This document shows, piece after piece, positions 39,276 to 40,298 of a stretch of DNA of 40,941 bases. The DNA lies in the IMG/VR virus record IMGVR_UViG_2526164598_000016. One strand, written 5' to 3'. Both the position numbers and the translations under genes were made by a program. This DNA is from a virus. Lineage: Duplodnaviria > Heunggongvirae > Uroviricota > Caudoviricetes. Under the pieces are notes generated by a model, which was given only the letters and a program-made list of their open reading frames with translations, did not search any database and was not told the DNA's origin. How positions within the stretch are numbered: position 1 is the first letter of the stretch; every line of letters begins with the position of its first letter.

Positions 39276-39601
39276 AGACCTTCCACTGGAAAGTGAAACC
39301 CGGTATGGATGTGGCTTCAGCCCCTTCCGTCAGGAAAGTGCGCTTTGGTGATGGCTATTCCCAGCGAGCGCCTGCCGGGCTGAATGCCGACCTGAAAACG
39401 TACAGCGTGACGCTTTCTGTTCCCCGTTGGGAGGCCACGGCGCTTGAGTCGTTTCTGGCTGAGCACGGGGGCTGGAAATCCTTTCTGTGGACGCCGCCTT
39501 ATGAGTGGCGGCAGATAAAGGTGACCTGCGCAAAATGGTCGTCGCGGGTCAGTATGCTGCGTGTTGAGTTCAGCGCAGAGTTTGAACAGGTGGTGAACTG
39601 A
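39272..39601 (+). CDS. M: Minor tail protein M
   Basis: 109 aa, MKTFHWKVKPGMDVASAPSVRKVRFGDGYSQRA… essentially lambda gpM. Confidence 0.85.
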   Translation: MKTFHWKVKPGMDVASAPSVRKVRFGDGYSQRAPAGLNADLKTYSVTLSVPRWEATALESFLAEHGGWKSFLWTPPYEWRQIKVTCAKWSSRVSMLRVEFSAEFEQVVN

Positions 39602-40298
39602 TGCAGGATATCCGGCAGGAAACACTGAATGAATGCACCCGTGCGGAGCAGTCGGCCAGCGTGGTGCTCTGGGAAATCGATCTGACAGAGGTCGGTGGAG
39701 AACGTTATTTTTCTGTAATGAGCAGAACGAAAAAGGTGAGCCGGTCACCTGGCAGGGGCGACAGTATCAGCCGTATCCCATTCAGGGGAGTGGTTTTGAA
39801 CTGAATGGCAAAGGCACCAGTACGCGCCCCACGCTGACGGTTTCTAACCTGTACGGTATGGTCACCGGTATGGTGGAAGATATGCAGAGTCTGGTCGGCG
39901 GAACGGTGGTCCGGCGTAAGGTTTACGCCCGTTTTCTGGATGCGGTGAACTTCGTCAACGGAAACAGTGACGCCGATCCGGAGCAGGAGGTGATCAGCCG
40001 CTGGCGCATCGAGCAGTGCAGCGAACTGAGCGCGGTGAGTGCCTCCTTTGTACTGTCCACGCCGACGGAAACGGATGGCGCTGTTTTTCCGGGACGTATC
40101 ATGCTGGCCAACACCTGCACCTGGACCTATCGCGGTGATGAGTGCGGTTATCACGGTCCGGCAGTCGCGGATGAATATGACCAGCCGACGTCCGATATCA
40201 CGAAGGATAAATGCAGCAAATGCCTGAGCGGCTGTAAGTTTCGCAATAACGTCGGCAACTTTGGCGGCTTCCTTTCCATTAACAAACTTTCGCAGTAA
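39601..40298 (+). pseudogene. L: Minor tail protein L, interrupted by a 1-nt frameshift in a T5 tract (39708-39712)
   Basis: ORF 39601-39804 (MQDIRQETLNECTRAEQSASVVLWEIDLTEVGGERYF…) and ORF 39633-40298 (…FFCNEQNEKGEPVTWQG…) are consecutive parts of one gpL-like protein in different frames; one extra T restores a single 232-aa frame. Confidence 0.7.

Follow-up and report, generated by a model that had tools for sequence, protein, structure and literature searches.

The question raised by this locus is whether a phage tail gene has really been broken or merely appears so in the deposited sequence. The gene is L (39601..40298, plus strand), the orthologue of lambda gpL, a tail tip protein, and as deposited it is interrupted, its coding capacity being distributed over two overlapping ORFs whose frames differ. 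By the window we mean the whole 40,941-nt stretch of DNA that was analysed; it is the final 40,941 bases of the draft contig AIHH01000030.1 (121,933 nt) of E. coli DEC13C, and adding 80,992 to a window position gives the position in the contig. The window begins at the stop codon of the prophage integrase gene, adjoining ompW, and stops where the contig stops, 643 nt past the stop codon of L. A preliminary description of this DNA had left two explanations side by side, a defective tail assembly gene or a homopolymer sequencing error. The evidence collected here fits that pair of choices, and a sequencing error is now the favoured one.

The break could be placed exactly. Positions 39700-39719 of the window read GAACGTTATTTTTCTGTAAT, which puts a run of five T residues (T5) at 39708-39712 on the plus strand. 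In relatives the run has six T residues (T6), and the codons TAT TTT TTC TGT specify Tyr-Phe-Phe-Cys at residues 36-39. The upstream ORF (39601..39804, plus strand, 67 codons) encodes gpL residues 1-37 followed by 30 residues out of frame, and the downstream ORF (39633..40298, plus strand, 221 codons) encodes 26 residues out of frame followed by gpL residues 38-232; residue 26 (Phe) of this out-of-frame part coincides with Phe37 of gpL. When one T was added to the run, L became a 699-nt ORF of 232 codons, every base of which matched L of the sister assembly AIHI01000010.1. Accordingly, a single uninterrupted frame of ~232 codons was absent from the deposited L and present in the sister assembly. 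In E. coli DA33133, the closest relative with a complete genome, 211 bases around the site were identical to the window except for one extra T. Thousands of homologues differ from the window by this one specific base, so the split in L is not a chance pattern.

The preliminary description had proposed that the two ORFs together make up one gpL-like protein and that the frame switches at this T5 run, where TTT TTC (Phe-Phe) would keep the frame. Both proposals held up, the latter by the comparison with DA33133 and the former by the product of the repaired gene, which was identical to the lambda tail tip protein L (PDB 8iyk_L) at 229 of 232 residues (residues 1-232 aligned, E = 6e-158). It shares with lambda gpL (8iyk chain L, PF05100) the length of 232 aa, all the gpL cysteines and the gene order M-L-K, and the two proteins differ only by A92V, Y124D and S184H; the difference at the level of the gene is that the deposited frame breaks here at codon 38. 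The Pfam family PF05100 (Phage_tail_L) matched the repaired protein at 337.8 bits and the 221-aa fragment at 329.4 bits (cut-off, 25), and no Pfam match was obtained for the 67-codon fragment. The 221-aa product has been deposited as EHX66230.1 under the name “phage minor tail protein L [Escherichia coli DEC13C]” and is on record solely in assembly GCA_000250355.2 (E. coli DEC13C). An exact copy of the 67-codon product was found in one other contig only, a 1.6-kb Logan contig in which L is split over three frames.

L lies in a tail module of the lambda type, with the order Z-U-V-G-T-H-M-L-K, in which every gene matches its relatives. Gene M (39272..39601, plus strand) is intact and immediately 5' of L, and gene K (40303..40941, plus strand) is in frame and truncated by the contig end. 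When the corresponding proteins of relatives were aligned to the window, Z, U, V, G, T, H, M and as much of K as is visible each stayed in a single frame, in agreement with the earlier statement that the flanking tail genes are intact. The position of L is ~1.2 kb from the end of the contig, which breaks within K, a multi-copy gene in such genomes. Within the final seven bases (40935-40941) the sister assembly has a different base at two positions, which would fit an admixture of reads derived from a different K copy where the contig breaks off. Compared with most relatives, the module also contains two in-frame deletions that are common to the clone, one of 3 nt in G (36251) and one of 9 nt in T (36635); the latter removes one copy of the short direct repeat GCGGATGT.

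Close relatives of the strain made a direct comparison possible. The accessions AIHI01000010.1 and AIHJ are adjacent, and both assemblies have this prophage inserted at the identical position beside ompW; parts of the prophage are also present on Logan contigs of the runs SRR096911 and SRR096913. We compared the window with AIHI over the full 41 kb of the prophage and 10 kb of the adjoining chromosome. Over these 51 kb there were about three substitutions (7623, 31447 and one chromosomal site), two insertion differences (an IS66 element in the window only and an IS21 element in the sisters only) and three differences in homopolymer length (in xis, in L and at 13302). The preliminary description had suggested comparing the length of the T tract in related L genes, and this comparison gave T6 both in the relatives and in AIHI, which is the clone-mate compared across L; T5 against T6 is the sole difference within the gene. 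The ~55 other comparable genes were all in frame, 63 homopolymer runs of at least six bases are still present in the window, and no homopolymer discrepancy was seen in the 10 kb of chromosome beside the prophage. An identical tape-measure protein H occurs in many assemblies (637 blocks in the index), and all those examined have an L of 232 codons.

Homopolymer lengths were found to vary elsewhere among these drafts. At 13302-13307 the window and AIHJ have T6, and AIHI and SRR096913, the odd ones out, have T5. The Logan contig SRR096911_362 enters the same IS66 junction by 28 nt and is therefore from the same strain as the window; at 18454 it reads A3 where the window reads A4, so that two assemblies of one strain disagree at a homopolymer. 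This contig, which covers 17803-21369, was the only Logan contig assignable to the strain; a search for an independent same-strain assembly spanning L or xis, made with H, G, T and a 64-aa protein, brought up only long contigs from other genomes or similar places collapsed together. None of the Logan contigs of SRR096911 carried either frameshift product, and the Logan gene calls do include these ORFs on other contigs. We considered T7 against T8 at 26071 and A4 against A5 at 24986, differences seen against distant relatives, as further errors, but the lengths are common to the clone-mates, indicating that they are real alleles. A one-base gap at 4834 proved to be no difference at all, since the alignment has an edge here where the sister strains carry their IS21 insertion. 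This IS21-family insertion, at 4838, is present in AIHI, AIHJ and a contig of SRR096913, and the window is without it; movement of IS elements tells these otherwise near-identical strains apart.

A frameshift of the same kind is present in the window in the excisionase gene xis (1109..1356, minus strand); the preliminary description had overlooked both it and the IS66 element. In relatives xis has 82 codons, and in the window it is split into ORFs of 56 and 36 codons by a one-base deletion. The run affected is T5 at 1238..1242 on the plus strand (A5 on the coding strand) and is T6 in every clone-mate and relative compared, namely in AIHI, AIHJ and three Logan contigs among the clone-mates; T5 is thus private to the assembly of the window. 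The site is ~38 kb from that in L, and the change is again from T6 to T5. An 85-nt version of xis with T5 was found in 2 of 1,726 matching E. coli records, and in strain 120899, the one of those two records that was examined, ompW, int, xis and the exonuclease gene (exo) are all frameshifted. The 56-aa xis fragment has other carriers, among them AP027446, where int, ompW and cls are split. Among other features of the window are a PaaA2 antitoxin and ParE toxin pair in the early region (~5905-6376, minus strand), recognised because genes called on the source contig gave Pfam matches, and two tRNA genes 3' of a DNA methyltransferase gene, one with the anticodon CAT (17588-17663), annotated as tRNA-Ile in a relative, and one for tRNA-Arg with the anticodon TCT (17764-17840).

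How often, and in what company, is the T5 allele of L seen in other genomes? This part of L is present in a median of 2 copies per complete E. coli genome. An 85-nt query of L with T5 located 7,987 places in 4,117 complete E. coli genomes, none of them an exact match, and the top matches all showed one gap. A shorter T5 probe of 36 nt, unable to seed where a copy has T6, matched exactly at 5 places when run against 5,426 complete E. coli genomes. In four of these five (SCU-301, ESBL 15, CFSAN029787 and 377323_2f) nearly all the neighbouring tail genes are annotated as “frameshifted”, and in the complete genome of the fifth, UM146, L is the sole frameshifted gene there. T5 was absent from the GTDB representative genomes, and in IMG/VR there were 4 contigs with T5 against more than 120 with T6 among the matches listed. 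In two metagenome contigs T5 in L is the sole visible frameshift. Further frameshifts stand beside T5 in three contigs (the Logan contig L002, the IMG/VR contig L006 and the contig L199) and are absent from L004 and L005 of IMG/VR and from L191 and L192. The T5 copies differ by 2-15% from the window and from one another, indicating that they arose independently. The same T5 was also found in a second draft with a DEC name, DEC10F (AIGU01000052.1), where the L concerned belongs to a different prophage. The privacy of T5 in DEC10F could be set against only one other contig with an identical H, which is no clone-mate (44 differences in 5.2 kb) and in which L is intact. Overall, the T5 allele, and with it the split layout, accounts for ~0.1% of L copies.

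A loss of one T can of course happen in a living cell as well as in a base caller. If the deletion were real, replication slippage would have shortened T6 in this one isolate and inactivated L, a reading that we regard as unlikely without thinking it far-fetched. Translation would then end after 67 codons, full-length gpL would not be made and assembly of the tail tip would stop, consequences that share the same rather low probability. Lambda L mutants make no tails. Induction would in that case be expected to yield tail-less heads, except where gpL came from a second lambdoid prophage in the cell, and, added to the frameshift in xis and the IS66 element, the deletion would picture a prophage being grounded in its host. 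Contraction of a homopolymer is a normal type of mutation, frameshifted prophage genes are common, finished genomes included, and this prophage has genuine lesions of other kinds. One is the IS66-family element (21341-23782; ORFs of 133, 115 and 512 codons), which has the SASA-family esterase gene on one side and the holin gene on the other and is flanked by the 8-bp target duplication GGATAACG; it is private to the strain, being absent from AIHI and AIHJ, and is reached by the independent same-strain Logan contig. It separates upstream late-region genes from the lysis and structural genes and may affect late transcription. The other is in the DUF968 gene (13660-14709; ~349 codons in relatives), in which an in-frame stop leaves ORFs of 130 and 205 codons; this stop is shared by AIHI, AIHJ and SRR096913 and is thus a genuine nonsense mutation common to the clone. 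Since both are real lesions, decay of the prophage is under way. Moreover, T5 as the sole frameshift seen in UM146, the two metagenome contigs, L004 and L005 suggests that real T5 mutants plausibly exist, and its presence on at least eight mutually different sequence backgrounds marks the tract as a recurrent site.

Against a real deletion in this isolate stands the fact that one assembly has two independent T6-to-T5 events which the clone-mates compared, only about three substitutions away in 51 kb, do not share. Two private homopolymer deletions per about three substitutions are far above the ratio that mutation in repair-proficient E. coli would be expected to give. Each of the two T5 alleles, in L and in xis, is found in ~0.1% of copies elsewhere, mostly in visibly error-ridden assemblies, and the recurrence of T5 in DEC10F, together with the lack of either frameshift product on the SRR096911 contigs, argues in the same direction. 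Support from more than one assembly exists only for the IS66 insertion and the nonsense codon in DUF968. Pathogenic E. coli strains are known to harbour defective lambdoid prophages, for example in the prophage pool of O157:H7 Sakai, and these resemble the present lambda-like prophage in their IS insertions, in point lesions in morphogenesis or excision genes and in possible complementation by co-resident lambdoid prophages. The difference is that both frameshifts here are missing from near-identical clone-mates and look technical.

The T run might instead be a functional switch, the ribosome slipping by -1 on U UUU U or the length of the tract reversibly toggling the production of tails. The pairing would allow the former, as a tRNA-Phe paired with UUU in the P site can move back by one base within T5 and pair again, after which the next codon is UUC, giving Tyr-Phe-Phe-Cys, and T5 does recur on many backgrounds. 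We nevertheless hold such a switch to be very improbable. The canonical X XXY YYZ heptamer is missing, the zero-frame codons being TAT TTT TCT, so that the A-site codon cannot re-pair. The fold of the RNA downstream (-30 kcal/mol, z = -1.93) was equalled by 9 of 200 shuffled sequences, and genes with T6 share the sequence there. In more than 99.9% of homologues L is one ORF, and the two-ORF form is therefore not conserved. A programmed frameshift at L was rejected for want of the heptamer and of conservation, the fold adding no clear signal. The tail module does have its genuine programmed -1 frameshift, which is separate from the L site: the lambda G/GT slippery heptamer GGGAAAG is present at 36266-36272, near the end of G (35862-36290) and ahead of T (36317-36721). 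The L site resembles it in belonging to the same tail gene module and in the one-base shift; however, G/GT has a conserved heptamer and a universal two-frame layout, whereas L has no heptamer and is split in ~0.1% of its copies. As for toggling by tract length, six bases are short for a phase-variable tract, and both lengths would be common among close relatives at a phase-variable locus, whereas here the clone-mate has T6 and T5 is rare overall. A more elaborate version, in which T5 is real, TTTTTT at L codons 37-38 is a slippage hot spot and reversion or -1 slippage restores gpL, so that the prophage alternates between an infectious and a grounded state, seems to us scarcely credible.

Two rare alleles of the same type in one draft, both absent from near-identical clone-mates, have their simplest common cause in the undercalling of six-base runs. 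The site in L has the marks of such an error, namely a one-base indel in a run of at least five bases, privacy against clone-mates and further homopolymer discrepancies in related drafts. The drafts of the DEC collection were reportedly made by 454 pyrosequencing. This method undercalls homopolymers. From the comparison of assemblies, we consider it likely that the split L is a homopolymer undercall, with T6 called as T5 in the draft AIHH01000030.1; that is, we infer base calling rather than mutation as the cause. The prophage itself would then carry an intact L of 232 codons with nothing unusual at the site, and the same undercalling would account for the T6-to-T5 frameshift of xis. The case resembles known homopolymer errors of pyrosequencing and of uncorrected long reads in the one-base undercall of a six-base run, its privacy to an assembly and the second identical event, as well as in the apparent frameshift of a conserved gene whose same alleles are found elsewhere among many “frameshifted” genes. 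It differs from them in its low apparent density, 2 events in 41 kb with the 63 longer runs left intact, and the lack of any homopolymer discrepancy in the neighbouring 10 kb of chromosome weighs against an undercall.

The main value of this finding is as a caution, because at face value the prophage would be scored as both tail-defective and excision-defective. Where reads are not at hand, a practical test is to compare the assemblies of clone-mates and then to see whether the rare allele, wherever else it occurs, sits among other frameshifts. If the deletion in L were real after all, it would be one more ordinary case of prophage decay. Most likely, however, the prophage is neither tail-defective nor excision-defective, and the IS66 element in its late region may be its only limitation.
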